DNA of 59,979 bases from an uncultured Dehalococcoidia bacterium (GTDB lineage: Bacteria; Chloroflexota; Dehalococcoidia; SZUA-161; SpSt-899). The position numbers were made by a program, and so were the translations under genes. Below, piece after piece: positions 4,903 to 48,611 of this stretch. The notes beneath the pieces are model-generated. The model was not told the origin of the DNA and made no database searches. It was given only the letters and a program-made list of their open reading frames with translations. The stretch's first letter is position 1. Every line of letters begins with the position of its first letter. The stretch covers positions 1 through 59,979 of the forward strand of contig CAZWIP010000001.1 of NCBI GenBank assembly GCA_964634125.1. Reading direction: 5' to 3'.

Positions 4903-6249
4903 ATGAGCTTCGAAAACTGGATTCACGGCAAAATCAGCCAGGCTACAGGGAAAACCAACGTAACCCGAAGCGATATTGAAAGCTATCAGCTTCAGCGGTT
5001 AAACCATACGCTTCGTTACGCAAAGGTCAACAGCCCGTTTTATCGCGATCTGCTGGCTGACGTGTCTGAAATCAGTTCGCTGAAAGAATTGGTAAATATT
5101 CCCTTCACCAATCCGCTGGACCTGGAACAGAGCCCATACAAATTGTTGTGTGTTTCCACAGGAGGAATAGCCCGGGTCTTCAGTCATTTCACTACCGGTA
5201 CCATGTCCGGCAGACCCAAAAAGATATTCTTCACTTACAATGATGCGGATGCCATTGTCGATTCGATGGCGGCGATCATGGAGACCGTAATCGATGGTGT
5301 GGGATTGAAGATGAGCGGGTGTAAAGTTCACATTTTTCTGCCGAACAACGGTCCCCCAATGAGCATGGCCGGGCTTATTTCCAGAGGAGCTGAACAGATT
5401 GGCGGCATTCCGGTAGTCGGCGACTGTACCGCGATGACGCCGGATCAAATTGAGCAGATAGAAGAGACAAAACCCGATATGCTGATGGGTTCGGCATTTC
5501 GTATCTGGCGGATTACCCAGGAATCGAGAGGATCACATGATCTGGCAAAAATTGGAGTTAAAGCCGTTTTCGTCACGTCAGAATATCTTTCCAAAGCCAT
5601 GCGAGAGAGACTGGAAGAGTACTGGCAGGCAGAAGTATTTCATCATTACGGGATGACCGAACCCGGATTTGTCATCGGGATTGAATGTACCGCGCACGAC
5701 GGATTTCATTTCAATGAAACCCAACTCTTATTTGAAGTGGTCGACCCGGAAATCGGGCAGGTGTTGAAAGATGGCGAGGAAGGGGAACTGGTCTTTACTA
5801 CCCTGCAAAGAGACGGAATGCCATTGATTCGCTATCGGACGGGGGATGTTGCCTGTTTGTACCGGGAGCCTTGCGGGTGCGGAGCTTCAACATTGACGAA
5901 GATCGGAACATTACCAAAACGAGTAGGGTTAATCTTGAAAATCGGAGATGGTGAGCAAATATACACTTCGCTATTTGATGAGGTTCTCTATCAAATTCCC
6001 GAGTTGATTGATTATCGGATATTCATTGATAGAGATGGTGATATCGACACCTTGAATTGTAAGGTGGAAGTGCTGGGAAATCCTTCGGATATCGAGGAAA
6101 AGGTATCGCAGCAATTGCTTGCAATTTCGCCGGTTCAAAAGAGCGTACAAGCAGGTCTATTAGTAAACCCTGTGATCGAACTGGTTGAACGAGGGGTGTT
6201 GAGAAGGGGGGGGCGGAGAATGAAAAGAAGAATTGTGGATAACAGATAA
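4903..6249 (+). CDS. phenylacetate-CoA ligase / coenzyme F390 synthetase-like adenylate-forming enzyme
   Basis: It has the PaaK-type N-terminal helix region (QLQRLNHTLRYAKVNSPFYRD) and adenylation-core motifs HHYGMTE and RYRTGD. The length of 448 aa is typical of COG1541 proteins. Confidence 0.85.
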   Translation: MSFENWIHGKISQATGKTNVTRSDIESYQLQRLNHTLRYAKVNSPFYRDLLADVSEISSLKELVNIPFTNPLDLEQSPYKLLCVSTGGIARVFSHFTTGTMSGRPKKIFFTYNDADAIVDSMAAIMETVIDGVGLKMSGCKVHIFLPNNGPPMSMAGLISRGAEQIGGIPVVGDCTAMTPDQIEQIEETKPDMLMGSAFRIWRITQESRGSHDLAKIGVKAVFVTSEYLSKAMRERLEEYWQAEVFHHYGMTEPGFVIGIECTAHDGFHFNETQLLFEVVDPEIGQVLKDGEEGELVFTTLQRDGMPLIRYRTGDVACLYREPCGCGASTLTKIGTLPKRVGLILKIGDGEQIYTSLFDEVLYQIPELIDYRIFIDRDGDIDTLNCKVEVLGNPSDIEEKVSQQLLAISPVQKSVQAGLLVNPVIELVERGVLRRGGRRMKRRIVDNR

Positions 6250-6310: not shown

Positions 6311-7084
6311 TTATTTGGGCGATATTTGCGCGATCAACGCGGCGCCAAGGGCTCCCATGATCTGTGGCTCATCACCGACTATTATCTCCATTCCCAGTTC
6401 CTTTTGCAGGAAATGCTTTATACCAACATTCTTGGCCACACCGCCAGTGAATACAATCTTGTCCTTATAGCCAACTGTTTTCCCCATGATAATGACCCTT
6501 CGGGCAACCGCCCTGTGTATACCGGCCACAATATCTTCGCGGCTTACATTTTCGGCACGTAACGATACCATCTCCGATTCGGCAAAGATAGTACATGTAC
6601 TGGTAACAGTAGCTGGGTTCTGGCTTATGATTGCTTCAGGCCCCATCTCATCCAGGGTAAGTTCCAGCACGTTGGCCATCACTTCCAGGAATCTGCCGGT
6701 GCCTGCGGCGCACTTATCGTTCATCACAAAGTCGGCTACTGTCCCGTCTTCTCGCGGACCAATCACTTTGCTATCCTGTCCACCGATATCAATAATCGTT
6801 CTGGCATCCGGCATCAAATGATTTACCCCTTTGGCATGGCAGATGATCTCGCTGATTCCCCTATCAGAAAAAGACACCACATGTCGGGCATATCCTGTTG
6901 ACATTATTGCATCGAGGTCGGACATGGTAAGACCGGCTATTGACAGAGCATCCTCGGTCACTTTTAGGGCCGATTCCTGGACCTTGGATCCGGTTGGCAT
7001 GACCTTGTGGGCAATCATCTCGCCGTCTTTGACGATGGCGGTTTTGGCTGTAGCTGCACCAACATCAACTCCTGCTGTTAGCAT
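6311..7084 (-). CDS. 2-hydroxyacyl-CoA dehydratase activase (BadF/BadG/BcrA/BcrD-type ATPase, HgdC-like)
   Basis: ASKHA-fold phosphate motifs GVDVGAATAKTA and IDIGGQDSKVI are present. So are CAAGTGRFLE and STCTIFAESE, which hold the two Cys that ligate the bridging [4Fe-4S] cluster in HgdC-type activators. GGAGGA precedes the ATG. Confidence 0.9.
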   Translation of the reverse strand: MLTAGVDVGAATAKTAIVKDGEMIAHKVMPTGSKVQESALKVTEDALSIAGLTMSDLDAIMSTGYARHVVSFSDRGISEIICHAKGVNHLMPDARTIIDIGGQDSKVIGPREDGTVADFVMNDKCAAGTGRFLEVMANVLELTLDEMGPEAIISQNPATVTSTCTIFAESEMVSLRAENVSREDIVAGIHRAVARRVIIMGKTVGYKDKIVFTGGVAKNVGIKHFLQKELGMEIIVGDEPQIMGALGAALIAQISPK

Positions 7085-7432: not shown

Positions 7433-8845
7433 CTAAACCGCTGCCTTCATCTCCTTATTCATCTTGACCACTTCAGCAAATGATTCAAGCCTGGTCCTGA
7501 GCTGTTGCGCGCTGTAATTGCGGGTATCATATCCATCGGTTTCAAGCACGATGGCCGGAATTCCCAGCTCTTTTTGGATATCCAGTTTGGCCATAATTGG
7601 AGGAATAGCCCAGGGGCGACAGTTATAAGCATAAGAGATTATGGCCGCATCCATGTTGAAATCTCTGCAAAGCGTGTTCCAGTAATCCAGTGAAGCTGAA
7701 GCGGAGCAAAGCTGAGGTCTTCGATAAAGCCCCTCTGCAATCTTATCGAGCATATCAGTGTATTTGCTCTTGGTTAACTCTTGCGGACACAACCAGTCTA
7801 CAAATACTGTGGGAAGGCAAAGTCCGAGCTCTTCTATCATCCTGATTGGCATGACGTCAACGTTAGGTCTCAGTGCCAGATACACACGGGGAGCGCCTTT
7901 GGGGACAACGCCCTCACCAGCATCAATTTTTCTCTTTATCTCGCGAACCATTGTGGCGATAGCTTCAACTGCCTCAGTTCGATATTCGGTGGCAATAGCC
8001 CAGAGAAGATATGGCAGGTTCACGTTTGCCTGACTGATAGGTTGAGGATCAGCGGCGCCTATCATCCGGGTGATATTCTGCATGGCATATAGCCATTTAG
8101 CTACATACTTGAATCCTTCTTTTAGCTGCTCTTCGGTTGTCTCGAATCCGGCAATTTCCTTGACTCTCTCGAGTGCCAGCCGGATGGTATTTGCGCTGTA
8201 CTTCACGGCACGTTCGTCCAGATTTGGCCAGGAACCCCAATCCCAATCGTTAACGCCGTCAAGATAGAAGATCTCAAATCCGTAGATTTCGTGCATCATC
8301 TCTTCGGTTTCGGCTGCCTGATCGCAGAACCATCCGGAGCCTAATGCCAGATCGGGTTTCGGCAGGATTCCCATATCGATAGCGCCGGTATATATCTGAT
8401 ATTGTGCGCAGTGAGCCTTCCCAGCCGGTTGCCCTATAAGTTCGCCTCTTTCGAGAATGGGGGTCAGGATATCAAAAATAGTTCCGCCTACCATCCAGAA
8501 AATCTGAACCGGCATGCCTACCCATGCTTTGTCACCTGCCTCTTCCGCGGCATCCATCATAGCCAAGGCCATCTGCACCGGGAAAGGCCAGTTGCAGTTG
8601 ATCACATGATCATGTTCATCCCGGGCCAGTACCGCATCAACACAGCTGTTCATTAAAACCCAGAGGAACTTCTGCACCGATACCATATCAACGTCATAGC
8701 TTGCCGTGACGGTTTTTTCGGCATGCGCGATAGCAGCTTCGTTGTTTACCTGCAACCTTTCGAGGAATGTCTCGAGTCTGGCCCTCTGCTTTTCTATTTC
8801 CTCTTCGGTGTAGCCGCATATTTTAAAAAGATTGTCGTAATACAT
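7433..8845 (-). CDS. 2-hydroxyacyl-CoA dehydratase family protein, large component (HgdA/BcrC-like)
   Basis: 470 aa, paralogous over its full length to 23101-24501. It is translationally coupled to the upstream subunit by a TAATG overlap at 8843-8847. The operon also contains an HgdC-type activase. Confidence 0.9.
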   Translation of the reverse strand: MYYDNLFKICGYTEEEIEKQRARLETFLERLQVNNEAAIAHAEKTVTASYDVDMVSVQKFLWVLMNSCVDAVLARDEHDHVINCNWPFPVQMALAMMDAAEEAGDKAWVGMPVQIFWMVGGTIFDILTPILERGELIGQPAGKAHCAQYQIYTGAIDMGILPKPDLALGSGWFCDQAAETEEMMHEIYGFEIFYLDGVNDWDWGSWPNLDERAVKYSANTIRLALERVKEIAGFETTEEQLKEGFKYVAKWLYAMQNITRMIGAADPQPISQANVNLPYLLWAIATEYRTEAVEAIATMVREIKRKIDAGEGVVPKGAPRVYLALRPNVDVMPIRMIEELGLCLPTVFVDWLCPQELTKSKYTDMLDKIAEGLYRRPQLCSASASLDYWNTLCRDFNMDAAIISYAYNCRPWAIPPIMAKLDIQKELGIPAIVLETDGYDTRNYSAQQLRTRLESFAEVVKMNKEMKAAV

Positions 8846-9996
8846 TAGTTCCTCCCCTGTTTCATGATCTCAACAAAGGTTTCCATCCTGGTCTTGAACG
8901 GACTTTTTTCCGAAGTATCATAGTCGGATTCCAATTTAAGGAACGGAAGCCCGGTGACTTTCTCGAATTCCTTTTGAAACGAGTATGACTGGATATCATA
9001 ACCATCCCGGTATAGCATTTGATACCAGAGCAAGCCGCTTATCTTCTTCTCCTTAACCGTATCAAGCAGGAAATCTACTCGTTCCCTTGCTGGCCTGAAC
9101 CATGCCGGCGGTACTCGCTTCATGAAATAGGTATCCGCCAGCGCCAGAATCGGATCGCCATCAAGTGACACATTGTGTGCGTATGGCATCAGCCCTTCGG
9201 CTGCGTCTTCGAATACAAATTCGCCGCCCACTTCATCCATGATATCAAGTATCTTCCCATCTCCCATAGCCAGCGTGGAGGCTGTCAGCAGTACCTGGGG
9301 TTTGTCGGAATCCACCTGTTCTTTCTGTTTCAGTTCTTCGTAAAGGGCTTCCAGAATTTCCATGAAGACTGCTCTGTCTGCCCAGACTGCGGCATGATGC
9401 AGTTTGATGAAGTCGCGCGTGCTGATGACCGGGGTTTTGCCGGGCTGACGCAATGCGCCAATGTTGCGCAAAAGCTCTCTCATCCGATTTTGTGTCTTGA
9501 TCTCTTCTTTCAGTTTAGCATCGGTGATCTGGTTGCCGGTGAACTCTTCCAGTCTCTGTTTGAATTCCTGCAAACTGCCTATATAAAACTCAAGAGCATC
9601 CTCACGTTTGTTGTGCGGAACGCCATAGCGGAGAGTTTTTACATCTGTGTAATAATCCCAGAGGTCGGCAATTGCCCGCTGGTTGATATCGCCAATAGGA
9701 GTAACGACTATATCGGGGAGCTGGTATAGGACCTCTTCCTCCATCATCCGATATCCGATCTGACATCTGCAGAAGGTATCGATGAATCTGGGGACATAAG
9801 CCATGCTCTCGGCTACCGGTTCCGGATCTCCTCCTCTAAGAAGGCACAGGGGCAATGCTCCGGCAGCATAAACCATCTCTTCGGGCATGTATCCGCCCGG
9901 GATATATCCTATGATTTTTTTACCACTCTTTTTAATCTGTCTTAGTTCGGGTCGTCTCTTTGAAAGATGGTCTGACAGTCTTTGCATTGCATCCAT
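8845..9996 (-). CDS. 2-hydroxyacyl-CoA dehydratase family protein, second component (HgdB/BcrB-like)
   Basis: It carries IIGYIPGGYMPEE and FIDTFCRCQIGY blocks. By eye it is roughly half identical to 21956-23098. AGGAGGG lies upstream of the ATG. Confidence 0.9.
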   Translation of the reverse strand: MDAMQRLSDHLSKRRPELRQIKKSGKKIIGYIPGGYMPEEMVYAAGALPLCLLRGGDPEPVAESMAYVPRFIDTFCRCQIGYRMMEEEVLYQLPDIVVTPIGDINQRAIADLWDYYTDVKTLRYGVPHNKREDALEFYIGSLQEFKQRLEEFTGNQITDAKLKEEIKTQNRMRELLRNIGALRQPGKTPVISTRDFIKLHHAAVWADRAVFMEILEALYEELKQKEQVDSDKPQVLLTASTLAMGDGKILDIMDEVGGEFVFEDAAEGLMPYAHNVSLDGDPILALADTYFMKRVPPAWFRPARERVDFLLDTVKEKKISGLLWYQMLYRDGYDIQSYSFQKEFEKVTGLPFLKLESDYDTSEKSPFKTRMETFVEIMKQGRN

Positions 9997-13146: not shown

Positions 13147-13485
13147 ATGTCCTGTATATTTTGTCAGATTGCGTCAAAAGAGATTCCCAGCGAGTTGATT
13201 TACGAAGATGATGAATTGATCGCTTTCCATGATATTCACCCTCAAGCGCCAGTACATTTTCTGGTTTTGCCTAAGAAGCATATCCCCCGATTGACGAATA
13301 TAACCAATGAAGATTTCTCACTCGTCGGCAAAATGACCCGAATAGCAACCGAGTTAGCTGAAAAAGAAGGGGTATCCAATGGATTCCGCATCGCGGTAAA
13401 CTGTGGTGAGCAGGGTGGACAGACTGTCTGGCATGTACATATGCACGTGCTGGGCGGACGGCAATTAAATGGGTATCTGGGTTGA
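13147..13485 (+). CDS. HIT family (histidine triad) protein
   Basis: The histidine triad HVHMHVLGG is present. The protein is 112 aa, and AAGGAG precedes the ATG. Confidence 0.9.
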   Translation: MSCIFCQIASKEIPSELIYEDDELIAFHDIHPQAPVHFLVLPKKHIPRLTNITNEDFSLVGKMTRIATELAEKEGVSNGFRIAVNCGEQGGQTVWHVHMHVLGGRQLNGYLG

Positions 13486-13488
13486 ATT

Positions 13489-14016
13489 ATGAGTAAATTA
13501 GATAGTATCAGGCAACTACTAAACAACAATCCAGACCTGGTGTGGAATGAACACTCTGCAAAACATGAACACCTGCGACACGAAGGCTCATATTACTACT
13601 CCACGGCCATCCAGGTTGCGCCTAAAGAACCTATGTTATTCTTTGCTAAACTCAAGGAATTATCAGATAGTCTAACCCGTGATTTAGCTCCAATAGGTAC
13701 TACCAACATCACCGAATGTTATGAATATTTCGAGACAAAACACGACGTGATCAAAACTGCCACATTATACTATTCCGAAGAAATCAACCTGCCTGAAGAG
13801 AAAGACACTATCGAGAGGCGTATAGCTGTAACAATATACCCATGCGAAGTCATGTCTGAAAATATGGGAATCAGAGGATTAATAGAGGTTAGTCACTACG
13901 AATGTCCTAACCCATGTAAGCAATTCAAGGAATGCACTTTCAAAGGATACTGGCGAGGGCCTATCGATAGCATACTGGATATACGCTTCCCACTTCGCGG
14001 TTCAGGTGGTCAGTAA
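13489..14016 (+). CDS. hypothetical protein (175 aa)
   Basis: The ORF starts 3 nt after the HIT gene stop codon. I recognise no motif. Confidence 0.55.
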   Translation: MSKLDSIRQLLNNNPDLVWNEHSAKHEHLRHEGSYYYSTAIQVAPKEPMLFFAKLKELSDSLTRDLAPIGTTNITECYEYFETKHDVIKTATLYYSEEINLPEEKDTIERRIAVTIYPCEVMSENMGIRGLIEVSHYECPNPCKQFKECTFKGYWRGPIDSILDIRFPLRGSGGQ

Positions 14017-14137
14017 TTCAGAGTGAATAATTCGCTTTCCCCACTTTGATATTTTCTGTGTACTCGAAAACCCCAATCAGTTGGGAATGAAGCAGACCAA
14101 CTTCCTTGCCCCTGGTATTCGTCCCTCAATACACCCA

Positions 14138-15463
14138 CTAATCAGGCCAATAGAGCTTCTTGGCTTCTTTCTCAAGTTCAGCCCGAAAATCAGGATGGGC
14201 TACACCTATGAGCTCCATAGCCCGTTCTCTCTGGGTCTTCCCTCTCAATTTAGCCACTCCATATTCGGTGACTATGGTATCAGCCAGTGTTCGAGGGGTA
14301 CTCACTACTGTTCCTGGGGTCAATTGAGGAACGATCCTGGACATCTCTCCGCTTTTAGCTGTGGAAGGAATAGCAGTGATAGCACGACCGCCCTTTGAAA
14401 GATATGCTCCAATTGCAAAAGATGTTTGACCGCCAGCACCGCTCATCATCTTGGTACCAATAGATTCTGCTGATATCTGCCCGGTCAAATCGACCATAAT
14501 TGCGCTATTAATGGCAATGACATTATCATTCTCTGAGATCACCTTGGGATTGAGGCAATAACTGGAGGGATGTACTTCAAACTGGGGATTCATATTGATA
14601 TAGTCCATCTCGTCCTTAGTACCCCCACCGACTGCTGTAGCCACTGCTTTTCCAATGTTGATCTGTTTGCGTTTTCCGCTGATGACTCCGTTCTTAACCA
14701 GCGTAGCCACCCCCCGGGGTGTATTTTCGGAGTGCCACCCCAGATCGTTTTTATTATCTAGCACTCCGAGCCGAGCAACCCATTCAGCAGTACCACCAAC
14801 TCCAATTTCCAGGCACCCGCCATCCGGAACGAGTTCCCCAATATATCCAGCGACTGTCTTTTCCAGTTCGCCCGGCCCGCTTACTTTTCTGCCCAGCAAG
14901 TCGGTGCCACCGGGAAGTCTTTCTGATGGGGTATGCTCCACAAAGCAGTCTATTTCAGAGACATGAACAAAGTTTTCTCCGTACGTGCGTACATTCCTTT
15001 TATTTACTTCAGCTAAAACGTATTTGGCATTTTGACACAGTTCGCGTTTGTTCCAGCATGAGGCACCTAAACTGCAATTGCCGTGCTCATCGGGTTCGCC
15101 AACCTGGATAAGGTAGGCATCAATAGGCTTCATAAAATCAACATCGGCGGCAGCAAAAAGTCCCACTACCTGAAAATCGCCTCTTTTTTCATCCATCATC
15201 TCACGGACAAGGGGTAATACATACGGTATTTCAAACTGGAAGGACTCTGCAAAAATGGGGTCGAACCAGGGAAGATCTCTACCGCCACCGCCATGAACTC
15301 TGACACCGGTTATCTCACCGATGCGTGAAGACAATGCCAAGCCCAGAGCTAGAGGTTCCGGCTGACTCAGTACTACATAATTACCGGACTCAATGACCTT
15401 CACCGCTTCTTCCGGTGTGGTCATTTTCTTTTCGAATTCTTCTTGCCAGGTTTCAAGCGACAT
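14138..15463 (-). CDS. acetyl-CoA hydrolase/transferase family protein (4-hydroxybutyrate CoA-transferase-like)
   Basis: 441 aa with the family-typical GGQTSF block and a C-terminal domain typical of the family. AGGAGGA precedes the ATG. Confidence 0.9.
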   Translation of the reverse strand: MSLETWQEEFEKKMTTPEEAVKVIESGNYVVLSQPEPLALGLALSSRIGEITGVRVHGGGGRDLPWFDPIFAESFQFEIPYVLPLVREMMDEKRGDFQVVGLFAAADVDFMKPIDAYLIQVGEPDEHGNCSLGASCWNKRELCQNAKYVLAEVNKRNVRTYGENFVHVSEIDCFVEHTPSERLPGGTDLLGRKVSGPGELEKTVAGYIGELVPDGGCLEIGVGGTAEWVARLGVLDNKNDLGWHSENTPRGVATLVKNGVISGKRKQINIGKAVATAVGGGTKDEMDYINMNPQFEVHPSSYCLNPKVISENDNVIAINSAIMVDLTGQISAESIGTKMMSGAGGQTSFAIGAYLSKGGRAITAIPSTAKSGEMSRIVPQLTPGTVVSTPRTLADTIVTEYGVAKLRGKTQRERAMELIGVAHPDFRAELEKEAKKLYWPD

Positions 15464-15482
15464 TACGTCCTCCTATCAGGTT

Positions 15483-15557
15483 GTCATTCTGAGGGAGTGA
15501 AGCGACTGAAGAATCTCCTTTAATGAGCATGAGATTCTTCACTTCGTTCAGAATGAC
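15483..15557. repeat. palindromic intergenic element, family A copy 2
   Basis: GTCATTCTGAGGGAGTGAAGCGACTGAAGAATCTC ... GAGATTCTTCACTTCGTTCAGAATGAC. Confidence 0.8.
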
Positions 15558-15683
15558 ATGTTGATTACAAACTAAATCCCAATGCTCCACCGTATAGAGA
15601 GCATTGGGATTTGATTATACGAGATTGCGATTTCACTAGTGTCCATCAACCCCCTATATCCCCCACTCTTGGGGGAGGTTTTA

Positions 15684-15702
15684 ACCGGGGGACACCCCCG
15701 GA
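15684..15702. repeat. hairpin repeat, family D copy 1
   Basis: ACCGGGGGACACCCCCGGA, with stem CCGGGGG/CCCCCGG and loop ACA. It is identical over 19 nt to 20097-20115, and the flanks are also similar (TTGGG.GA.GGT...ACCGGGGG). It lies just 3' of a minus-strand gene. Confidence 0.65.
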
Positions 15703-15736
15703 AGTCCTTCCGGTACCGGGAGGGATGCATCTCTTA

Positions 15737-18743: not shown

Positions 18744-19964
18744 CTACTTGGCTGCCGGTGGTTCGCCAACAATCGTAATGCCGCAAACGAAGTTGCCGGG
18801 GTGACCACCCTGGTTGTGCGCGATACCCATTTTTAAATCGCCTTTAAGCTGACGGGATGGATCTTCCGCCTTACCCTGGAATTGTTTGTAGAATTCATAA
18901 ATCTCGCGGCCTCCGCTGGCTCCCGCAGGATGGCCAAACGACTTCAAACCACCGCTAACATTGATGGGCATTTCACCTTCCTGCTCCCAGTTGCCGGCAT
19001 CGATATCTTCACGTGATTTGCCTTTCTCAACCAGACCCAGCGATTCAGCGGCAATGACTTCGGCAATAGAGAAACAGTCGTGTAATTCAAAAACCTGCAT
19101 CTCTTTACGTGGGTCCGTGATTCCAGCCATTGCGTATACCTGCTTGGCACATCGTTCCGTTTCTTCCCAATGGAGGTAATCATAATCAGGCCGTTCCTTG
19201 CCCCAACTGGGGCCACAGGCAATTCCTGATCCTTTAATGGTAATGTAGTCACCATTAGGCCGGAATTTCTTGGCATCTTCAGTTCGAACCAGAATGGCTG
19301 CTGAAGACCCATCATTGATGCCGCAGCAATCGAAAAGTCCCAGCGGCCAGGCGATAATCGGGGCGTTCAAAACCTGTTCCACGCTTACTGCTTTGCGCAG
19401 AGCGGCCTTGGGATTCCTCGAACCGTTATAGTGACTCTTCACCGAAACTTTGGCCAGCATGGTCTTGCCCTCTTCAGGGGTCAACCCATAATAGGAAAAA
19501 TATCGGGTAGCGGCCAGAGCATAACGAGCCACACCGCCACCTACTTCAGGCGCTGCGCCATAAACCGGGTGCCATTTACCGGGAAAGGCCTGGGGAATTC
19601 CGCCGAATCCGGCATCTTTCATCTTTTCAACTCCAAGAGCCAAACAGACATCATACGCGCCAGCAATGAGTGCCATAGCTGCGCCTCTGAAGGTTTCGGC
19701 ACCGGTGCCACAGGCATTTTCCACGTGGGTCACCGGAATATAGTCGAACTGCAAAGCGCCCGCTGCCATAATACCGGTCATGGCAATATCAGAATTAACA
19801 TATCCCAGCCAGCAGGCCTGAATATCCGTTGTTTCAATACCCGCGTCCTCGCAGGCTTCATAAGTGGATTCCACCATCAGGTCCTCGGGACCTTTATCCC
19901 AGAGCTCACCGAAAGCGGTACAGCCCATACCAACTATTGCGACTTTATCTTTAATGCTTTCCAT
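18744..19964 (-). CDS. SCP-x-type thiolase (thiolase domain protein)
   Basis: The nucleophile Cys sits in VENACGTG. ELHDCFS and GHPAGASG blocks are present near the C-terminus. 406 aa. Confidence 0.9.
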   Translation of the reverse strand: MESIKDKVAIVGMGCTAFGELWDKGPEDLMVESTYEACEDAGIETTDIQACWLGYVNSDIAMTGIMAAGALQFDYIPVTHVENACGTGAETFRGAAMALIAGAYDVCLALGVEKMKDAGFGGIPQAFPGKWHPVYGAAPEVGGGVARYALAATRYFSYYGLTPEEGKTMLAKVSVKSHYNGSRNPKAALRKAVSVEQVLNAPIIAWPLGLFDCCGINDGSSAAILVRTEDAKKFRPNGDYITIKGSGIACGPSWGKERPDYDYLHWEETERCAKQVYAMAGITDPRKEMQVFELHDCFSIAEVIAAESLGLVEKGKSREDIDAGNWEQEGEMPINVSGGLKSFGHPAGASGGREIYEFYKQFQGKAEDPSRQLKGDLKMGIAHNQGGHPGNFVCGITIVGEPPAAK

Positions 19965-20096
19965 CTACTTTCCCTCTCTTTTTAACCCGCTCGTGTAGTA
20001 TCCAACAACTCTCTACACTTTGTCATTCCGGGCTTGACCTGGAATCTATTCGTTTTGGTCGAGATTCCTACTCCCTACAATTGGGAGAAGGTAATG

Positions 20097-20115
20097 ACCG
20101 GGGGACACCCCCGGA
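20097..20115. repeat. hairpin repeat, family D copy 2
   Basis: ACCGGGGGACACCCCCGGA, identical to 15684-15702. It lies 20 nt downstream of the stop codon of 20135-21556. A GTCATTCCGGGCTTGACCTGGAATC hairpin sits nearby at 20022-20046. Confidence 0.65.
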
Positions 20116-20134
20116 CCCCCGACTGGCAGCAATG

Positions 20135-21556
20135 TTAGCACCGTATCGGGCGGACTCTCCAGAAATAGTTAATCAGTTCGGAACCTTCAAGCTGGATTCT
20201 GAAGGTCATCTCCAGCTTCATGCCTACTTCAACTTTTTCGGTATCGCGGTCGGTCATGACACTGTAGAAACGTCCGCCGCCATCGAGATCAACCACGCTG
20301 AATACCTTGGGCAAAACGATCTCCTGAGCCCGATCATCCATGCTGTAGGTAAACAGGGTGCCGGTCACATCGGAAAGCCGGACGAACTCAAAATTGTCTT
20401 TAGCTCTGCAGTACATGCACACCCGCTGCCTGGGAAGCTGGATATTTCCGCAGCTATTGCACTTTTGCCCGTAGAGCTTCCAGACCATTTCCTTATCGCG
20501 CCAGATCACTGGCAGTGATGACGGTCGGGCTGGAACCGTGCCCTTTGCCCATTCCATCATCTGCTTTATCTGAACGTATTTGCCGTAACTGGGGAGCGTC
20601 ATCTTCGATTCCAGATGATTTCTGATCCCACGGCGGTTGCCTTGTATTTTAGTGATATTGTCGGTCACTTTGAGAAGATAGGCATCAGCGCCGTCACCAT
20701 AGGTGGCGAAGAGGATTTTATCTCCCGGTTTAGCTTCTTCCAGTGCGGAGATCAGGATCATCGGGGCCAGCGCTGTGCCGGTGTTTCCGACCGAAGCGCC
20801 CATCGGGTCCTGAACTTGGGTCTTGGGGTCGAGCTTCATCTTCCTGGCCATAGCCGAATGAGTCCGGGGTTCCGGTCCGTAGAAGCACGCCTTGGTAATA
20901 TCCTCAGGCTTGATGTTGAGCTTCTTATAAAGTTCCTTAACCGCCTGGGGGAGAATCTTGAGGTAGCCTTCTTCACGAATAAACCGGTCCTCCCAGACCT
21001 GCATGTATTTATCGCCGGGCTTTCGCCAGACATCGATGAATTCGCTTGAAAGATGATAGCTTCCATCGATAGTAGCGATGACGTCGGTGTCACCAATCAG
21101 TAACGCTGCAGCGCCATCACCAAAAACACCCTCAAATCCTGAATCAGGTGCAGCCAGCCGAGAATCGGAAGCAACCACCATCACGTTCTTCGCTGAACCT
21201 GCTTTGACAGCGTCCTCAGCCGCTCTCAGGGCATTGGTAGCACCCCTAAGCGAATGAGCAATATCCATGGTACTGATATCATCTCGCAGGTCAGCTGCAG
21301 AACGGATGATGCTGGCCGACTGTTTCTCAAGATATGGGGGAGAAACAGTTGCAAAGTACAGGGCATCGACCGAACTCCGATCCATGCCCCTTAGACAATC
21401 TATCGTAGCCTCCACTCCCATCGTCAGGCTGTCTTCATCTGCATTGGCTACCGACCGCTCACCGGAACCGCCGCCCCCACCCCACATCGCACCAATATCT
21501 TTTCGACTAAGTCTGTAAATGGGAATATAGGCACCATAAGAGGTAATTCCAATCAA
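20135..21556 (-). CDS. HMG-CoA synthase-like domain fused to DUF35 (zinc-ribbon + OB-fold) domain
   Basis: The N-terminus GITSYGAYIPIYRLSRKDIG...DEDSLTMGVEA matches the archaeal-type HMGCS start. The C-terminus carries CNSCGNIQLPRQRVCMYC (Cys4 ribbon) followed by an OB-fold. I chose a TTG start at 21556 (AAGGAGG about 9 nt upstream), which matches the start of the paralog at 32210. Confidence 0.85.
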   Translation of the reverse strand: MIGITSYGAYIPIYRLSRKDIGAMWGGGGGSGERSVANADEDSLTMGVEATIDCLRGMDRSSVDALYFATVSPPYLEKQSASIIRSAADLRDDISTMDIAHSLRGATNALRAAEDAVKAGSAKNVMVVASDSRLAAPDSGFEGVFGDGAAALLIGDTDVIATIDGSYHLSSEFIDVWRKPGDKYMQVWEDRFIREEGYLKILPQAVKELYKKLNIKPEDITKACFYGPEPRTHSAMARKMKLDPKTQVQDPMGASVGNTGTALAPMILISALEEAKPGDKILFATYGDGADAYLLKVTDNITKIQGNRRGIRNHLESKMTLPSYGKYVQIKQMMEWAKGTVPARPSSLPVIWRDKEMVWKLYGQKCNSCGNIQLPRQRVCMYCRAKDNFEFVRLSDVTGTLFTYSMDDRAQEIVLPKVFSVVDLDGGGRFYSVMTDRDTEKVEVGMKLEMTFRIQLEGSELINYFWRVRPIRC

Positions 21557-21852
21557 TTTACAAGTCCTCCTTAAACACACTGGGACAAGCATAAAAACTT
21601 GCCTCACAGGTAATTGACCCAAAGAATAATTATAGAGAAAAACCAAACCGATGTCCACCCGAATGAATGACTGGTCACTCTCAATCTTCACGGCGGCAAA
21701 TTTCGTGATTTTAAGGAGATACTCTCTTTTGTTACAGTGGAACCGTTTTAGCCATTATGCTATATGGAAACATGAGTAATATCCTATCGTCCTTACTCCA
21801 TTTAATCCAGATACTAATGAGACTCTTTCTGAAATTGATATATTATTAGGTA

Positions 21853-21955: not shown

Positions 21956-23098
21956 ATGGAAGCAACGGATAGTTTATCAGCACACATGAAAACCAGGGTA
22001 ATAGAACTGAAAAAGCTGAAGGATGAAGGGCGAAAAATCATTGGCTACACTCCTGGTGGCTACATGCCCGAGGAACTGGTATATGCCTGTGGGGCAGTGC
22101 CAGTGGGGCTTATTCGTGGTGGCGAGCAAGAACCGGTACTGTATTCCGGAACCTATCTTCCACGCTGGATGGATACTTTTTGCCGTGCCCAGATTGGATA
22201 TAAGATGCTGGGAGAGGACCCCATTTATCAAATGGTGGATTTGCTGGCGGTGCCACTCACTGATAATAATATCAGGGCAGTGGCGGACTGCTGGGATTTC
22301 TATACTGATACTGAGGTGTTCCGGTTTGGTGTCCCCCATCATAAAAGCGATTTTGCGTTCAACTACTACTTGGATGGAATCAACCTGCTCAAAGAAAAAC
22401 TTGAGAGCCTGACCGGGAACAAAATGGATGCGGCGAAGCTTAAGGAAGCTATCGATTTGCGCAACAGAGAGCGTGAGCTTCTCAATCAGATTAGCCTGAT
22501 GCGCATGTCCGATCAACCACCGATAAGTGCAAGGGATTTCATAGAGCTGAACCATAATTCCTTCCTAGCCAATACAAGAGTCATGGTAGAGGCATTGGAA
22601 TCCGTGTGTACTGAACTGAAAAAACAAGGGCCTGCCCGTTCAGTGAAGGGCCCCAGAATTCTGCTCACAGGCTCCACATTGGCCCGCGGGGACTACAAAA
22701 TCCTGAGCCTGATCGAGGAAACCGGAGCGGAAGTGGTGATCGAGGAGTTCGCCGAGGGAATGAGGCATTACTGGGAAACAGTGAATCCTGATGGCGACCT
22801 TATGGAGGCGCTGGCTGATAGATATTTCAGAAGGCGGGTGCCTCCTGCCTGGTTCAGACCGGGCAGGGAACGGCTCGATTTCCTCATAAAACTGGCTAAA
22901 GACTTTAAGGTTGACGGGGTTATCTGGTATCAGCTTATGTATCGTGATTCATATGATTTCGAGTCTTATTATTTCCCTCCCATGCTGGAAAAGGAAACAG
23001 GTTTGCACATGCTCAAGATCGAATCGGACTACGATGATTCCGAGATCGGGCCTTTCCGGACCAGGGTCGAAACCTATATCGAAACTATCAGGAGGTAA
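21956..23098 (+). CDS. 2-hydroxyacyl-CoA dehydratase family protein, second component (paralog of 8845-9996)
   Basis: IIGYTPGGYMPEE and WMDTFCRAQIGY blocks are present. AAGGAG precedes the ATG. The gene order matches the other pair. Confidence 0.9.
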   Translation: MEATDSLSAHMKTRVIELKKLKDEGRKIIGYTPGGYMPEELVYACGAVPVGLIRGGEQEPVLYSGTYLPRWMDTFCRAQIGYKMLGEDPIYQMVDLLAVPLTDNNIRAVADCWDFYTDTEVFRFGVPHHKSDFAFNYYLDGINLLKEKLESLTGNKMDAAKLKEAIDLRNRERELLNQISLMRMSDQPPISARDFIELNHNSFLANTRVMVEALESVCTELKKQGPARSVKGPRILLTGSTLARGDYKILSLIEETGAEVVIEEFAEGMRHYWETVNPDGDLMEALADRYFRRRVPPAWFRPGRERLDFLIKLAKDFKVDGVIWYQLMYRDSYDFESYYFPPMLEKETGLHMLKIESDYDDSEIGPFRTRVETYIETIRR

Positions 23099-23100
23099 CC

Positions 23101-24501
23101 ATGTACACTGAGCTTTTTACACTTTGCGGCTATGAACCGGAGGAAATAGAAAAGGAAACTCCCAGAATCGAAAGAGCCTTCGAGAAGGCGAAGTTGGGGC
23201 GCGAGGATATCGAACGGGCCGAGAGCCGGGTAGGAGAATATTTTGATACCACATCACTTGGTGTGAAGAAAAGCCTGAAGATATGGATGGAGCAGTTCAT
23301 TGATATGGTCCTCGCCAGGGAAGAGGGAAAGAAAATAATATATCCCTCCTACCCTACTGTTCCAGATATCACCCTGGCAATAAACATGGCCTCTGAAAAC
23401 GTTTTTTGCCAGACCCCGGAGATAATTCTCGATATGGTCATGGGCCAGATATTTGGCAAACTAGATCCCATCCTGGAAGCAGCCGAGGCGCATGGACTGT
23501 CCCAGGGGCTGGCCATGTGTTCCCTGAATCAGGCACGAGTTGGGGGGATAATACAAGAAATAGCGCCCATGCCTGACCTCCTGCTGGGTACCGGTTTTTT
23601 CTGCGACCAGACCCCAAAAACAGACGATTACCTCCATGAGGTTTATGGGATACCTATGGTAATCATGGATGGCTGCATGGACTCTAGCTGGGACGAGTTC
23701 CCGGAGATCAGTTCACGACGGATAAAGGCCCTTGGCATTGAAATACGACGAGCGATGGAGGAATGCCAGGATGCGCTGGACATCAAGATAACCGATGAGT
23801 TACTTGAAGAATCTTTTTCAGATTTCACCAAGCTTTGGACCTCTCTGTTCATGCTCTGGGATTATATGAAGAACGATCCGCAACCGATGAGCCTGGTGGA
23901 TTTGGGCCCCTTATGGTGGATGGCAACTTCACCGGACCGCCGGGCTCTGACGGAGGGAATTCAGGTGATTGCCCAGTTAATCAGGGAGGTGCATCAGAAG
24001 GTCAAAGAAGGGAAGGGAGTGGTGGCCAAAGGTGCCCCCAAGGTGCTCATATTTTGCCATCAGGCCACGGATCCGTGTGTGATGCGTATGATTGAGGATG
24101 CTGGCATTGCTGTGCCTACTACTACCCTAATAGGCGTCACTGCGTCCCAGGCTGCAGCATTCGCAGATACAAAATATACTATCTGGGAGGAAAAGGTAGC
24201 CAACAACATGCTCAGTCACGGTTTGTACCACAGCACTCCAGGCAGTATCCACCGATACCGGGAGCTTTGCCAAACCTGGAATGTGGACGGGGTGTTGAAT
24301 TTCTACCATTTCTCCTGTCGTGCAATTTGTATTGCTCCCTTGATGATCAAGAGTGCCATAGAGGAAGATGTGGGCATCCCGGTTCTATCGCTGGAGGGAG
24401 ATTTCTACGATACAAGGCAGTACAGCGCTGAGTCATTAAAAACGCGTGTGGAGACGTTTGCCGACATGTTGACCACAAAAGCAGCAAGCCAAAGCGGTTA
24501 A
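23101..24501 (+). CDS. 2-hydroxyacyl-CoA dehydratase family protein, large component (paralog of 7433-8845)
   Basis: The N-terminus MYTELFTLCGYEPEEIEKE compares with MYYDNLFKICGYTEEEIEKQ in the paralog. AGGAGG precedes the ATG. 466 aa. Confidence 0.9.
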   Translation: MYTELFTLCGYEPEEIEKETPRIERAFEKAKLGREDIERAESRVGEYFDTTSLGVKKSLKIWMEQFIDMVLAREEGKKIIYPSYPTVPDITLAINMASENVFCQTPEIILDMVMGQIFGKLDPILEAAEAHGLSQGLAMCSLNQARVGGIIQEIAPMPDLLLGTGFFCDQTPKTDDYLHEVYGIPMVIMDGCMDSSWDEFPEISSRRIKALGIEIRRAMEECQDALDIKITDELLEESFSDFTKLWTSLFMLWDYMKNDPQPMSLVDLGPLWWMATSPDRRALTEGIQVIAQLIREVHQKVKEGKGVVAKGAPKVLIFCHQATDPCVMRMIEDAGIAVPTTTLIGVTASQAAAFADTKYTIWEEKVANNMLSHGLYHSTPGSIHRYRELCQTWNVDGVLNFYHFSCRAICIAPLMIKSAIEEDVGIPVLSLEGDFYDTRQYSAESLKTRVETFADMLTTKAASQSG

Positions 24502-32209: not shown

Positions 32210-33646
32210 GTGGCAGGTATAACCTCGTATGGTGCTTATGTTCCGTACTATCGGCTGAGCCGCGCTGAGATCGCCCGGGCATGGGATGGATATCCCGGAG
32301 ATGGCGGACGGGCAGTAGCCAATTGGGATGAAGACACCATCACCATGGCCGTTGAGGCTGTTATCGACTGTTTGAGAGGCTTCAAGCGAAATACAGTGGA
32401 CGGACTTCTGTTCGTCACCACCACCCCAGCATTTATGGAGAAATCCAGTGCTGCCGTAATTGCTAAAGCAACCGATCTGAATAACGATCTGTTTTCTATC
32501 GACTGCGGCGGTAGCTTAAGAGCTGGAACTTCAGCACTTAAACTTGCGCTTGATATGGTTAAAGCAGGATCACAGAAAAATGTAGTTGTTGCTGCTGCTG
32601 ATTGTCGCCTCGCTCCCCCGAATTCCGGGGCGGAGAGTGATTTCGGAGATGGCGCTGCTGCTCTGATGATTGGTGATAAAAATGTCGCTGTTGAAGTAGA
32701 TGGCATCTATTCCTTTACCGATGAATTCACCGATCGCTGGAGAAGGACTGATGACCAGTTCGTTAAATCCTGGGAAGAGCGCTTCGTTAACACTCAGGGT
32801 TATAACAGGCTTCTCACTGACACCGTTGGCAACGCACTGAAAGCATTCAAGCTAAAACCCGAAAGCGTCAGCAAGCTTATTTTCCCTGCTCACGCCAAGA
32901 CTCCGCATACGCGTGCAACCTGGGTCAAGGCTTGCGGTTTCAAGACAGCCCAAGTTCAGGATCCGTTATTCGACGAAATGGGCAACACTGGCTGTGCTTT
33001 CCCGCTACAGTTGCTTGTTTCTGCACTTGAAGATGCAAAGGCTGGAGACAGAATTCTTCTGGTCAGTTACGCCGATGGCGGTGACGTTTTCAGCCTCCGC
33101 GTGACTGCAGAAATTGAGAAGATCAAGAAGGGTCGCCGAGGCATGAAGGATCACTTGGCTTCCCAAAAAGAACTGACAAACTACGGCCGATATCTACTCT
33201 TCCGGGGTTTGGTATCAAAAGAATATGAATCAGCGGCTCCGACACCGTACGCATCGCTACCACGTGAATGGCGTGAGCGCAGTAGTATCATGTCGCTTCA
33301 TGGCAGTAAATGTAAAAAGTGTGGTGAAGTACAATTCCCGGTCGAGCGAGTTTGTCCCAAGTGTCTTTCCAAAGATGAATTCACCGAGGTCAGCTTAGCC
33401 CAGACACCAGCTGAGATCTATACCTATAATCTGGACTACGCTACGCCTACATCGGATCCGCCAAACAGCATGTGCCAGGTGGACTTCAAAGGTGGGGGAC
33501 GAATCCAGTGCATCATGGCAGACAGGGACCCCAACGAGGTGGAAATAGGCATGCCGGTTGAGATGACTTTCAGACGGTTCCACGAAGAGAAGGATATCGT
33601 TCACTATTATTGGAAAGCTCGACCCCCAAGGGAGCCCAAAAAGTAA
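32210..33646 (+). CDS. HMG-CoA synthase-like domain fused to DUF35 domain (paralog of 20135-21556)
   Basis: A GTG start follows AAGGAGGAAG. The N-terminus reads GITSYGAYVPYYRLSRAEIA. The C-terminus carries CKKCGEVQFPVERVCPKC (Cys4 ribbon) followed by an OB-fold. Confidence 0.85.
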   Translation: MAGITSYGAYVPYYRLSRAEIARAWDGYPGDGGRAVANWDEDTITMAVEAVIDCLRGFKRNTVDGLLFVTTTPAFMEKSSAAVIAKATDLNNDLFSIDCGGSLRAGTSALKLALDMVKAGSQKNVVVAAADCRLAPPNSGAESDFGDGAAALMIGDKNVAVEVDGIYSFTDEFTDRWRRTDDQFVKSWEERFVNTQGYNRLLTDTVGNALKAFKLKPESVSKLIFPAHAKTPHTRATWVKACGFKTAQVQDPLFDEMGNTGCAFPLQLLVSALEDAKAGDRILLVSYADGGDVFSLRVTAEIEKIKKGRRGMKDHLASQKELTNYGRYLLFRGLVSKEYESAAPTPYASLPREWRERSSIMSLHGSKCKKCGEVQFPVERVCPKCLSKDEFTEVSLAQTPAEIYTYNLDYATPTSDPPNSMCQVDFKGGGRIQCIMADRDPNEVEIGMPVEMTFRRFHEEKDIVHYYWKARPPREPKK

Positions 33647-33683
33647 GGCCCAAGAGGCACTTAAAGAGGAGGTTATAGAACAC

Positions 33684-34886
33684 ATGGCAGAAGGAACTAT
33701 TAAAGATAAAGTAGCCATAGTCGGCATGGGTTTGACCCGATTCGGTGAACTGTGGACCAAGAGCGATGCCGATGTAATCATTGAAGCTGCCTGGGAAGCT
33801 TATGAAGATGCGGGCATCGAGCCCAATGCAGTGGATGCGGCCTTTGTGGGCACTATTTTCAGTGGTGTCACAGCAGGTTGTTTGAGTGAGCCGCTTAAAA
33901 TGGATTTGAAGCCGGTCACCAGGGTAGAAAACAATTGCGGGTCGGGTTCAGAGGCACTCAGGCTCGGCGCGCTTTCAATCGCCGCCGGCATGTACGATAC
34001 TGTATTGGTCTTAGGGTTTGAGAAATGTAAGGACTGCGGTTTCAATGTCCTCCCTACTCCACAGCCCGATAGCTTGCACCCGGTCTACAATACCAGGCTG
34101 ACAGGTCCCGGCGCCTATGCAATGGCCACCATTAATTACTGGCATAAATACGGTATTGACCCGATCGAAGGCAAACGCACCCTGGCCAAGATCGCGGTGA
34201 AAAACCATCACAACGGTTCTATGCATCCCAAGGCTCATCTTCAACGAGAGCTGAGCATGGAAGCAGTGATGATGTCGCCCCCGATCGTTTATCCGCTGGG
34301 TCTTTTTGATTGCTGTCCCACCACTGATGGTGCAGCTGCTGCAATACTGACGAAAGCCAGTTTAGCCAAGAATTTCCGCGATGATTATGTTCTGATTAAA
34401 GGTCTGGGTGTATCCGTTACCCGTATAAATCCGTGGAACGGCAAGTGCAAATCTGATGTAGACGCGACCTTCTGGACAGAAACGGCTGTTGCTTGCGATC
34501 AAGTAAAGGCTCAGACCGGCGTCAAGGATTTCAATAAAGAAGTTCAACTTGTTGAGTTGCACGACTGCTTCACCATTACTGAACAGATTGCTTATGAATC
34601 CCTGGGAATTTGCAAGAAGGGTGAAGGCACGGAGGCGGTCAACGATGGACGATTCCTGCTTGATGGCAAACTGCCGGTTAACCCTGATGGCGGTTTGAAA
34701 TCCTTTGGTCACCCCATCGGTGCCAGCGGAATCCGCATGGTCTATGAGTGCTACAGACAGATTCAGGGCAGAGCAGAGTCACCCAAACGCCAGTTGAAGG
34801 ATGTCAAGCTAGCTCTGGCACAGTGTCAGGGTGGCGTTCCTGGAACATTCCAGGCTAACGTACAGCTCTTTGGTGCAAGAGACTAG
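33684..34886 (+). CDS. SCP-x-type thiolase
   Basis: VENNCGSG (nucleophile Cys), ELHDCFT and GHPIGASG blocks are present. GAGGAGG precedes the ATG. Confidence 0.9.
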   Translation: MAEGTIKDKVAIVGMGLTRFGELWTKSDADVIIEAAWEAYEDAGIEPNAVDAAFVGTIFSGVTAGCLSEPLKMDLKPVTRVENNCGSGSEALRLGALSIAAGMYDTVLVLGFEKCKDCGFNVLPTPQPDSLHPVYNTRLTGPGAYAMATINYWHKYGIDPIEGKRTLAKIAVKNHHNGSMHPKAHLQRELSMEAVMMSPPIVYPLGLFDCCPTTDGAAAAILTKASLAKNFRDDYVLIKGLGVSVTRINPWNGKCKSDVDATFWTETAVACDQVKAQTGVKDFNKEVQLVELHDCFTITEQIAYESLGICKKGEGTEAVNDGRFLLDGKLPVNPDGGLKSFGHPIGASGIRMVYECYRQIQGRAESPKRQLKDVKLALAQCQGGVPGTFQANVQLFGARD

Positions 34887-34918
34887 GATAAGCAAAGTAC
34901 CGGAAAGGAATAATAATA

Positions 34919-35695: not shown

Positions 35696-35827
35696 CATTA
35701 AGATTTTTTTTAAGAATAGAAAAGTAACAATAGATAGGGATATTCAGATAGCTCCGGTATGGATGCGCACTGAATATCCCTGTTTAATGTAGAGAGATAC
35801 CTAAAAACCTTTGGGAGAGGATGAGGC

Positions 35828-37021: not shown

Positions 37022-37037
37022 GGGATGTCCCCTGTAA

Positions 37038-48608: not shown

Positions 48609-48611
48609 TTT

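Follow-up and report, generated by a model that had tools for sequence, protein, structure and literature searches.

The 59,979-nucleotide (nt) stretch of DNA analysed here (the window, from an uncultured Dehalococcoidia bacterium, contig CAZWIP010000001.1 of assembly GCA_964634125.1) encodes a protein in which a domain resembling archaeal hydroxymethylglutaryl-coenzyme A (HMG-CoA) synthase (HMGS) is fused to a DUF35 domain. The gene (20135-21556) and that of an SCP2-type thiolase (18744-19964) run in the same direction on the minus strand in the open reading frame (ORF) list of the window, at the positions where a sequence-only reading had placed them. The loss of the catalytic Glu, Cys and His from the HMGS-like domain is confirmed. 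We consider it probable (about 0.65) that the fusion protein is a pseudoenzyme subunit that partners the thiolase, and that the complex performs the thiolysis that closes an (R)-specific β-oxidation. The earlier reading, of a non-catalytic or re-purposed scaffold in a β-oxidation operon, is supported by the residue loss, by the intact active sites of the partner thiolases and by the genes of the operon. The basic arrangement and its in vitro behavior have already been published (Liao et al., Nat Commun 2026, PMC12960953), and this work is therefore confirmation and extension, not discovery. What it adds is the family-wide adjacency of fusion and thiolase, the constraint on the dead domain, the recurrent (R)-specific β-oxidation partners and the presence of multiple cassettes in the window.

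Loss of the catalytic residues of the HMGS-like domain

The fusion protein contains the motifs GITSYGAYIPIYR, DEDSLTMGVEA, ATVS, HSLRGAT, FYGPEP, GNTG and YGDG, and its residues 2-310 align to the solved archaeal HMGS chain 6esq_I with E = 1.2e-32 (HMMER). The archaeal-type homology claimed for the N-terminal part, and all the motifs quoted for it, are therefore borne out. In this alignment GSESHPY of 6esq_I corresponds to ATVSPPY, so that the catalytic Glu is replaced by Val, and FACKAGT corresponds to HSLRGAT, replacing the nucleophilic Cys by Leu. The register is unambiguous at both positions. FHQPNGK corresponds to FYGPEPR, with Tyr for the catalytic His. The Glu, Cys, His, Asn tetrad reads V72/L103/Y226/N258, and the Asn of GNT is the only one of the four residues that is kept. 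Three separate MAFFT alignments gave the same catalytic columns. The substitutions read by eye at the Glu and Cys positions were reproduced by both programs, and the His region, which had been regarded as the least secure of the three, came out the same in each MAFFT alignment.

An AlphaFold2 model of the fusion, built on 57 sequences, has a mean confidence (pLDDT) of 85.9 and pTM = 0.89. The only disordered part is the linker between the domains (residues 334-353, pLDDT <50). A Foldseek search with the model placed 6esq_J/I on top (E ~5e-30, with a TM of 0.88 on the target). The list was headed by the archaeal HMGS chains in 6ESQ and 6ET9, with PhlA-type and MucA chains next. Pfam assigns ACP_syn_III and ACP_syn_III_C to residues 97-290, zf-ChsH2 to 360-386 and OB_ChsH2_C to 392-453. 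All four zinc-ribbon cysteines (C366, C369, C380 and C383) are present and are invariant across the family, and the C-terminal part matches 6esq_E, which is DUF35 in that crystal structure, at 2.4e-12. The DUF35 zinc ribbon and OB fold are complete, as had been stated.

If the catalytic residues had been mis-aligned by eye, the protein might be a genuine HMGS of the mevalonate pathway. It scores 240.5 bits with PRK04262, the NCBIfam model of archaeal HMGS, slightly under the cut-off of 244, and public annotations often read 'hydroxymethylglutaryl-CoA synthase'. However, the HMMER, MAFFT and structure-based matches agree on V, L and Y. Mutation of the tetrad (E82/C114/H238/N270) abolishes HMG-CoA synthesis in the archaeal enzyme, and a fused homologue from P. 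fluorescens yields no HMG-CoA (PMC12960953). There are no other mevalonate-pathway genes in the window. The proposal is refuted at the sequence level, and we give it practically no chance. Taken at face value, the annotations would lead one to credit Dehalococcoidia and other metagenome-assembled genomes (MAGs) with a mevalonate pathway in error; recognizing these proteins as pseudoenzyme partners of thiolases corrects such metabolic reconstructions.

The inactive domain is conserved across a large family

Residue states were surveyed in two sets of relatives. The close set comprised the 120 best matches among 90%-identity clusters, with ≥57% identity to the fusion. An HMMER search of 1.84 billion cluster representatives returned 625 representatives of 50%-identity clusters at E ≤1e-30, some of which may be HMGS-like relatives without the fusion; the top 150 of these (34-49% identity) formed the distant set. 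Every member of the close set is a fusion of 430-485 amino acids (aa), nearly all being of 472-485 aa, and the source names indicate Chloroflexi/Dehalococcoidia. The best 150 of the 625 are almost all full-length fusions.

In the close set the nucleophile position is Leu in 109 sequences, Ile in 7, Met in 2 and Val in 2, and never Cys; the Glu position is Asp in 47, Thr in 33, Ala in 22 and Val in 15, and never Glu. The distant set similarly has neither Cys nor Glu at these positions, with Leu in 103/150 and Thr in 118/150, while Ser102 and Arg104 on either side of the lost nucleophile are kept in 121/150 and 129/150 respectively. The catalytic Cys and Glu are found in none of the 270 relatives, and an active HMGS-DUF35 fusion was sought among them and not found. 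Four of the 150 have a Cys at position 102, but these retain Leu103 and lack the Glu and His. No alternative conserved nucleophile was found, C54 being present only in 91/150. One 723-aa candidate (P0141), with HMGS-like, ATP-grasp and molybdopterin-binding pieces, has no DUF35 and is apparently a chimera produced by gene calling; it was set aside.

A scan of species-representative genomes yielded 79 loci, mostly from Dehalococcoidia. The other bacterial sources are Nitrospinae, Armatimonadota, Acidobacteriota, Desulfobacterales, Syntrophaceae, Binatia and Spirochaetaceae, and the archaeal sources are Bathyarchaeia and Ca. Alkanophaga. Full-length homologues of 27-34% identity lie on replicons of cultured organisms, including Rhodococcus, Mycobacterium avium, Sphingobium, Novosphingobium, Variovorax, Azoarcus KH32C, Paraburkholderia and Halogeometricum; those of Variovorax, Azoarcus and Rhodococcus have 29-34% identity. 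The Cys and Glu are absent from the members checked in Variovorax, Rhodococcus, Azoarcus, Halogeometricum and archaeal MAGs. Since the archaeal fusions also lack both residues, inactive fusions are not confined to bacteria. The family spans bacteria and archaea and often occurs in multiple copies per genome. Given its size, breadth and copy number, it is probably a major and under-appreciated form of β-oxidation thiolase in subsurface anaerobes.

Over 69 fusion-thiolase pairs the median identity to the window proteins is 50% for the HMGS-like domain, 51% for the thiolase, 44% for DUF35 and 32% for the linker. The inactive domain is therefore a maintained pseudoenzyme and not a decaying relic, because it is conserved as strongly as the thiolase.

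Equal constraint might alternatively reflect a new ligand-binding or catalytic role of the HMGS-like domain, such as retention of the acyl tail or of a second substrate, or the recruitment of other enzymes of the pathway (a short-chain dehydrogenase/reductase, SDR, and MaoC proteins) into a metabolon. The domain evolves as slowly as its catalytic partner, and the residues at and beside the replaced positions are themselves conserved. There are natural fusions to other activities: P0160 (911 aa) joins HMGS-like-DUF35 to an SDR and an SCP2 lipid-binding domain, and P0193 (722 aa) joins it to two SCP2 domains. In Sulfolobus acidocaldarius the DUF35 of a ketothiolase (KT)/DUF35 assembly mediates the binding of SDR and MaoC proteins in the archaeal fatty-acid synthase complex (bioRxiv 10.1101/2024.07.05.601840). 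Yet the replacements (Leu, Val or Thr, and Tyr) are chemically inert, no substitute nucleophile is conserved, and the homologues PhlA and MucA have been published with no chemistry assigned to them. We regard a new role of this kind as decidedly unlikely.

The partner thiolase is adjacent and intact

The gene for a thiolase adjoins that of the fusion in 73 of the 77 cases with enough downstream sequence. In 71 it lies directly downstream, with a median gap of 19 nt, and in two Bathyarchaeia loci it lies directly upstream. Among archaeal members the thiolase precedes the fusion in L044 (6806-9413) and L066 (6793-9407), both from Bathyarchaeia, and in L088 (3820-6407) from Halogeometricum. The coupling of fusion and thiolase proposed earlier holds as regards adjacency; the tight spacing usual in the family is not seen in this pair, whose two genes are 170 nt apart. 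The survey of relatives of the fusion, with their residue states and neighbors, agrees with the proposal.

Both of the motifs read in the window thiolase, ENACGTG and HDCF, are present, and the enzyme is intact as claimed, with Cys85, HDCF and the GHP containing His345. The Cys, HDCF and GHP are kept in 72/72 partner thiolases checked. Its best solved relative is 6esq_A (3.5e-56), followed by BbsB (3.3e-39) and PhlC (6.6e-18). All three modules encoded by the window pair (thiolase, HMGS-like and DUF35) have their best solved relatives in 6ESQ, and therefore descend from one ancestral complex.

These data bear on two other activities. The first is a Friedel-Crafts-type C-acyltransferase like PhlACB or MucABC acting on a small-molecule acceptor. 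By sequence, PhlA (5m3k_A, 3e-38) is the best match of the HMGS-like part in the Protein Data Bank, and it too lacks the tetrad. However, the acyltransferases have lost the His of HDxF (PMC12960953), which is intact in every partner thiolase checked, and the window thiolase is much nearer to the archaeal acetyl-CoA acetyltransferase (ACAT) than to PhlC. Nor did Pfam reveal polyketide synthase (PKS) or nonribosomal peptide synthetase (NRPS) genes in the window, among about 55 ORFs of at least 144 aa and one of 136 aa. Such an activity is already disfavored and very improbable. The second is a retro-aldolase that depends on DUF35, as in Ltp2/ChsH2 or Sal/Shy. Pfam models of ChsH2 match the DUF35 domain and a MaoC heterodimer is encoded nearby, but the Ltp2 and Sal aldolases have the motif YDHF or YDCY at the position of HDCF (PMC12329534), whereas Cys85, His295 and His345 are all intact here. 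In the aldolase systems, moreover, DUF35 is on the hydratase, and here it is on the HMGS-like protein. The analogy with Ltp2 that had been drawn for this pair is not the best fit, because the thiolase has HDCF, and we consider retro-aldol cleavage scarcely probable. A functional link to the aed cluster of oestrogen degradation (PMC8913865) was likewise dismissed, because its DUF35 sits on a ChsH2-like hydratase.

The operon encodes a probable (R)-specific β-oxidation set

The minus-strand cluster has the order fusion, thiolase, MaoC-A, MaoC-B, SDR, crotonase, CoA-transferase (Table 1). The MaoC pair resembles both HadAB and ChsH1/ChsH2, and neither MaoC gene carries a DUF35 domain. The nearest solved relatives of the SDR are 2et6 (9.8e-63), 1zbq, 1gz6 and 3oml, which are the yeast, human, rat and fly forms of peroxisomal multifunctional enzyme type 2 (MFE-2). 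The MaoC pair, MFE-2-type SDR and SCP2-type thiolase together constitute the enzyme logic of peroxisomal D-specific β-oxidation.

Related neighbors recur in other genomes. In L005, whose fusion is 83% identical, the order is fusion-thiolase-MaoC-[MaoC::SDR fusion]-crotonase-CoA-transferase, MaoC-B and the SDR forming a single 472-aa protein (13174-14592). L004 has MaoC-MaoC-fusion-thiolase-SDR. Variovorax has SDR-MaoC-fusion-thiolase-acyl-CoA dehydrogenase-CoA-transferase and the binding protein of a TTT transporter, Rhodococcus DK17 has fusion-thiolase-thiolase-SDR-crotonase, and in Azoarcus KH32C fusion-thiolase-CoA-transferase adjoins a MaoC pair, an SDR and electron transfer flavoprotein (ETF). 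In cultured bacteria the neighbors of the homologues include acyl-CoA dehydrogenases, ETF and acid transporters. Cultured carriers include Variovorax paradoxus VAI-C (INQ48_38065-38090), Rhodococcus sp. DK17 (PST05_RS38975-38995) and Azoarcus sp. KH32C (AZKH_RS24530-24540).

We propose the following mechanism. The fusion derives from the archaeal thiolase/HMGS/DUF35 channelling complex; both the nucleophile that forms the acyl-enzyme and the residues for acid/base catalysis are gone from its HMGS-like domain, and DUF35 has become covalently attached. The protein is predicted to bind the SCP2-type thiolase encoded downstream as in 6ESQ, with DUF35 clamping the thiolase and the dead HMGS fold forming the other wall of a shared CoA-binding chamber and keeping the thiolase soluble and active. 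All the chemistry would then occur in the thiolase, at Cys85, His295 of HDCF and His345 of GHP. In the proposed route an acid is activated by the CoA-transferase, the enoyl-CoA is hydrated by the MaoC heterodimer to the (3R)-hydroxyacyl-CoA, the MFE-2-type SDR oxidizes this to the 3-oxoacyl-CoA, and the thiolase would cleave the latter thiolytically as the last step of an (R)-specific, peroxisome-like β-oxidation. The substrates are probably bulky or branched acyl-CoAs, as suggested by the MFE-2/SCP2 flavor of the operon.

Comparison with known complexes

The sequence-only reading knew of no described function for this arrangement. One was described in January 2026, when Liao et al. solved the structure of MucABC and set it beside PhlACB and the complex from archaea (PMC12960953). 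Among bacteria they mined 1,030 loci that combine the HMGS-like, ACAT-like and DUF35 domains, and in 1,001 of them no secondary-metabolism genes lie nearby. Their P. fluorescens ACAT/HMGS-DUF35 consists of a fused HMGS-DUF35 lacking the E-C-H-N tetrad and an ACAT-like thiolase that keeps the Cys, HDxF and GHx. In vitro the purified complex made neither HMG-CoA nor acetoacetyl-CoA, and it cleaved acetoacetyl-CoA thiolytically, an activity that the H294Y change in HDxF abolished. They further report that the derived complexes retain the CoA chamber found at the interface of the archaeal one.

The window pair has every sequence-level feature of the P. fluorescens type, the match being one of described features and not of sequence identity: a fused HMGS-DUF35 with the Glu, Cys and His lost, an adjacent intact SCP2 thiolase, and no PKS or NRPS neighbors. 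By analogy, it would form a complex, make no HMG-CoA and cleave acetoacetyl-CoA by thiolysis. It differs in that the Asn is kept, in its host, an uncultured member of the Chloroflexota/Dehalococcoidia, and in that the cassette heads an operon with the MaoC pair, MFE-2-type SDR, crotonase and CoA-transferase. Liao et al. viewed the P. fluorescens complex as an unrecruited 'evolutionary intermediate' (PMC12960953). The equal constraint on the two proteins and the recurrent pathway neighbors argue against this, and for an established metabolic role.

Comparison with other systems is consistent with this placement. In the archaeal complex 6ESQ the thiolase, HMGS fold and DUF35 are homologous to those here and are encoded together, and the thiolase active-site motifs are kept. 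But DUF35 is a separate protein there and fused here, the HMGS site of the window protein is dead, leaving no second reaction for channelling, and the genomic context resembles β-oxidation, not the mevalonate pathway. PhlACB (5M3K/5MG5) and MucABC (9VBO/9VBT) share a tetrad-less HMGS-like subunit, DUF35 and a thiolase-fold subunit. They are, however, three separate proteins, the His of HDxF is lost from the thiolase-like subunit, and they acylate small molecules and sit in PKS (type III) or NRPS(-PKS) clusters.

The Sulfolobus complex comprises the same enzyme classes: a ketothiolase of SCP2 type together with DUF35, an SDR, and a MaoC dehydratase that is (R)-specific. Unlike the window system it lacks an HMGS-like domain and is encoded by scattered genes instead of one operon, and it has been shown to work toward synthesis, with the enoyl-CoA reductase as a separate enzyme. 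Peroxisomal MFE-2 and SCPx offer an (R)-hydratase 2, a (3R)-dehydrogenase SDR of the same subfamily and an SCP2-type thiolase, and SCP2 domains are fused to some relatives of the window protein as well. This is an analogy of pathway logic and not orthology of the whole system; the eukaryotic peroxisomal thiolase requires neither DUF35 nor an HMGS-like partner. Finally, DUF35 is an obligatory partner of an SCP2-type thiolase fold in the BbsAB benzoylsuccinyl-CoA thiolase (7PXP), ChsH2-Ltp2 and Shy-Sal, but these have no HMGS-like module, and the aldolases have Tyr for the His of HDCF. A classical example of this two-component form is also present in the window (48198-49769).

Direction of the pathway

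Several observations weigh against a thiolase complex of β-oxidation. The fusion operon has no acyl-CoA dehydrogenase. The 170-nt, hairpin-bearing spacer between fusion and thiolase is atypical of the family. That the dead domain is strongly conserved, with S102-L103-R104 and N258 among the kept residues, could point to a function beyond scaffolding. Moreover, in at least seven Chloroflexota MAGs a fusion-thiolase cassette interrupts the tuf-secE-nusG-rplKAJL cluster, separating rplA (L1) from rplJ (L10), which is an odd place for a catabolic enzyme. These loci are L001 (7325-12643), L003 (10001-12668), L017, L023, L026, L028 and L037, and the cassette is doubled in L001 and L037. No β-oxidation genes lie near these cassettes, except for one adjoining acyl-CoA dehydrogenase-like ORF in L026. 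A biosynthetic or housekeeping reading therefore stays alive.

The same complex might run in reverse, the thiolase/HMGS-like-DUF35, MaoC pair and SDR performing a CoA-based chain elongation independent of acyl carrier protein (ACP), as reverse β-oxidation or fatty-acid synthesis. The enzyme set equals that of the S. acidocaldarius complex of KT/DUF35, ketoacyl-CoA reductase and MaoC dehydratase (bioRxiv 10.1101/2024.07.05.601840). The SDR also resembles 3-oxoacyl-ACP reductases, HadAB belongs to mycolic-acid synthesis, and the rplA-rplJ insertions suggest a housekeeping or growth-linked role. Against elongation, the operon has no enoyl-CoA reductase, and a CoA-transferase and crotonase are co-transcribed with the cassette. 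The paralogous pair in the window precedes two acyl-CoA dehydrogenases, and homologues in cultured bacteria have the degradative neighbors listed above. That the P. fluorescens complex condensed no acetyl-CoA in vitro (PMC12960953) is a weak point, as uncoupled condensation is thermodynamically unfavorable. On balance we think elongation unlikely, and thiolysis at the end of (R)-specific β-oxidation would remain the best account of the window operon.

A broader idea, which we offer as a tentative possibility, is that the dead HMGS-DUF35 serves as a docking hub that brings thiolase, (3R)-dehydrogenase and MaoC hydratase into a channelling metabolon, a prokaryotic counterpart of MFE-2/SCPx, and that in some Chloroflexota this carries out growth-linked, ACP-independent elongation or remodelling of acyl-CoAs. 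If true, it would explain the rplA-rplJ placement.

Gene starts and intergenic structure

The coordinates of the features are collected in Table 1. The mechanical call extends the fusion ORF to a GTG at 21691, a start that we rejected. TTG 21556 is the better start because AGGAGG lies 9 nt 5' of it and because a promoter-like site falls within the longer ORF. For MaoC-A we discarded the mechanical TTG start at 18786, which overlaps the thiolase, in favor of the ATG at 18648; the L005 orthologue has the same length of 153 aa.

Table 1. Positions of the fusion operon, its intergenic elements and the other thiolase modules of the window
Feature	Position	Strand	Remarks
HMGS-like::DUF35 fusion gene, 473 aa	20135-21556	-	TTG start after AGGAGG; stop 20135-20137
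HMGS-like thiolase-fold domain, residues 1-335	20552-21556	-	alignment to 6esq_I and PhlA; fold match 6esq_J/I
DUF35 domain, residues 355-473	20138-20494	-	CxxC...CxxC zinc ribbon, then OB fold
Promoter-like site TGGACA-17-TATAAT	21629-21657	-	near-consensus (11/12); ~70 nt upstream of fusion TTG
Perfect hairpin CCGGGGG-TGT-CCCCCGG	20098-20114	-	in fusion-to-thiolase spacer
SCP2-type thiolase, 406 aa	18744-19964	-	Cys85 (NACGTG), H295-D-C-F, G-H345-P intact
MaoC/hot-dog subunit A (HadA/ChsH1-like), 153 aa	18187-18648	-	ATG after AGGAGG
MaoC/hot-dog subunit B (HadB/ChsH2-like), 144 aa	17742-18176	-	predicted (R)-specific enoyl-CoA hydratase partner
SDR, 317 aa	16762-17715	-	nearest solved: (3R)-hydroxyacyl-CoA dehydrogenase domains of MFE-2
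Crotonase-family enoyl-CoA hydratase/isomerase, 301 aa	15737-16642	-	Pfam/NCBIfam
Acetyl-CoA hydrolase/transferase-family CoA-transferase, 441 aa	14138-15463	-	last cluster gene, after 273-nt structured spacer
Second fusion (paralogue), 478 aa	32210-33646	+	~45% identical overall; Glu to Thr, Cys to Leu
Second SCP2-type thiolase, 400 aa	33684-34886	+	directly downstream of second fusion
Crotonase	34919-35695	+	after second thiolase
Acyl-CoA dehydrogenases (two)	35828-37021, 37143-38273	+	after second thiolase
Third SCP2-type thiolase	48612-49769	-	Cys, HDCF, GHP kept
Stand-alone DUF35 protein, 136 aa	48198-48608	-	directly downstream of third thiolase; classical two-component form
3-Hydroxyacyl-CoA dehydrogenases (two)	47161-48030, 44352-45206	-	near third thiolase/DUF35
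CoA-transferase A/B subunits	46330-47139, 45286-46236	-	near third thiolase/DUF35

The spacer between fusion and thiolase contains a perfect hairpin, where the 71 homologous pairs have the short median gap given above. An identical 17-nt copy lies at 15685-15701 (minus strand), in the spacer between crotonase and CoA-transferase (15464-15736), which has additional strong hairpins; two matches to this 17-mer occurred in 0/100 shuffles. Scanned with Rfam, the window showed no RNA family in the structured spacers of the operon, and a terminator scan gave no signal above shuffled expectation.

Other modules in the window

A second fusion and thiolase lie at the head of the module at 32210-38273 on the plus strand, and the window therefore holds two such cassettes. 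Divergent from the first operon is a pair of HGD-D family proteins (21956-23098 and 23101-24501, plus strand), which might, as speculation, be the source of enoyl-CoA for it. Another such pair lies at 8845-9996 with 7433-8845 (minus strand). Both pairs are of 2-hydroxyacyl-CoA dehydratase, benzoyl-CoA reductase or double-cubane type; all these proteins score under the NCBIfam cut-offs. An activator ATPase of BcrAD/BadFG type is encoded at 6311-7084 (minus strand).

Three plus-strand genes encode a radical SAM protein whose N-terminal zinc ribbon is of HMPTM type (2304-3677), a hot-dog protein of 383 aa that resembles FAS1_DH (3751-4902), and an AMP-binding enzyme similar to phenylacetate-CoA ligase (4903-6249). 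They may form a further acyl-CoA pathway module. A 483-aa ORF (54198-55649, plus strand) has no Pfam match at E ≤1e-5; its neighbors are a large PAS/GAF histidine kinase (50249-54136) on one side and, on the other, a 1224-aa protein (55709-59383) whose C-terminal domain is of type GH130. At the end of the window there is a selenocysteine tRNA (tRNA-Sec) at 59397-59488 on the minus strand, which matches Rfam RF01852 with 63.4 bits against a gathering score of 47.

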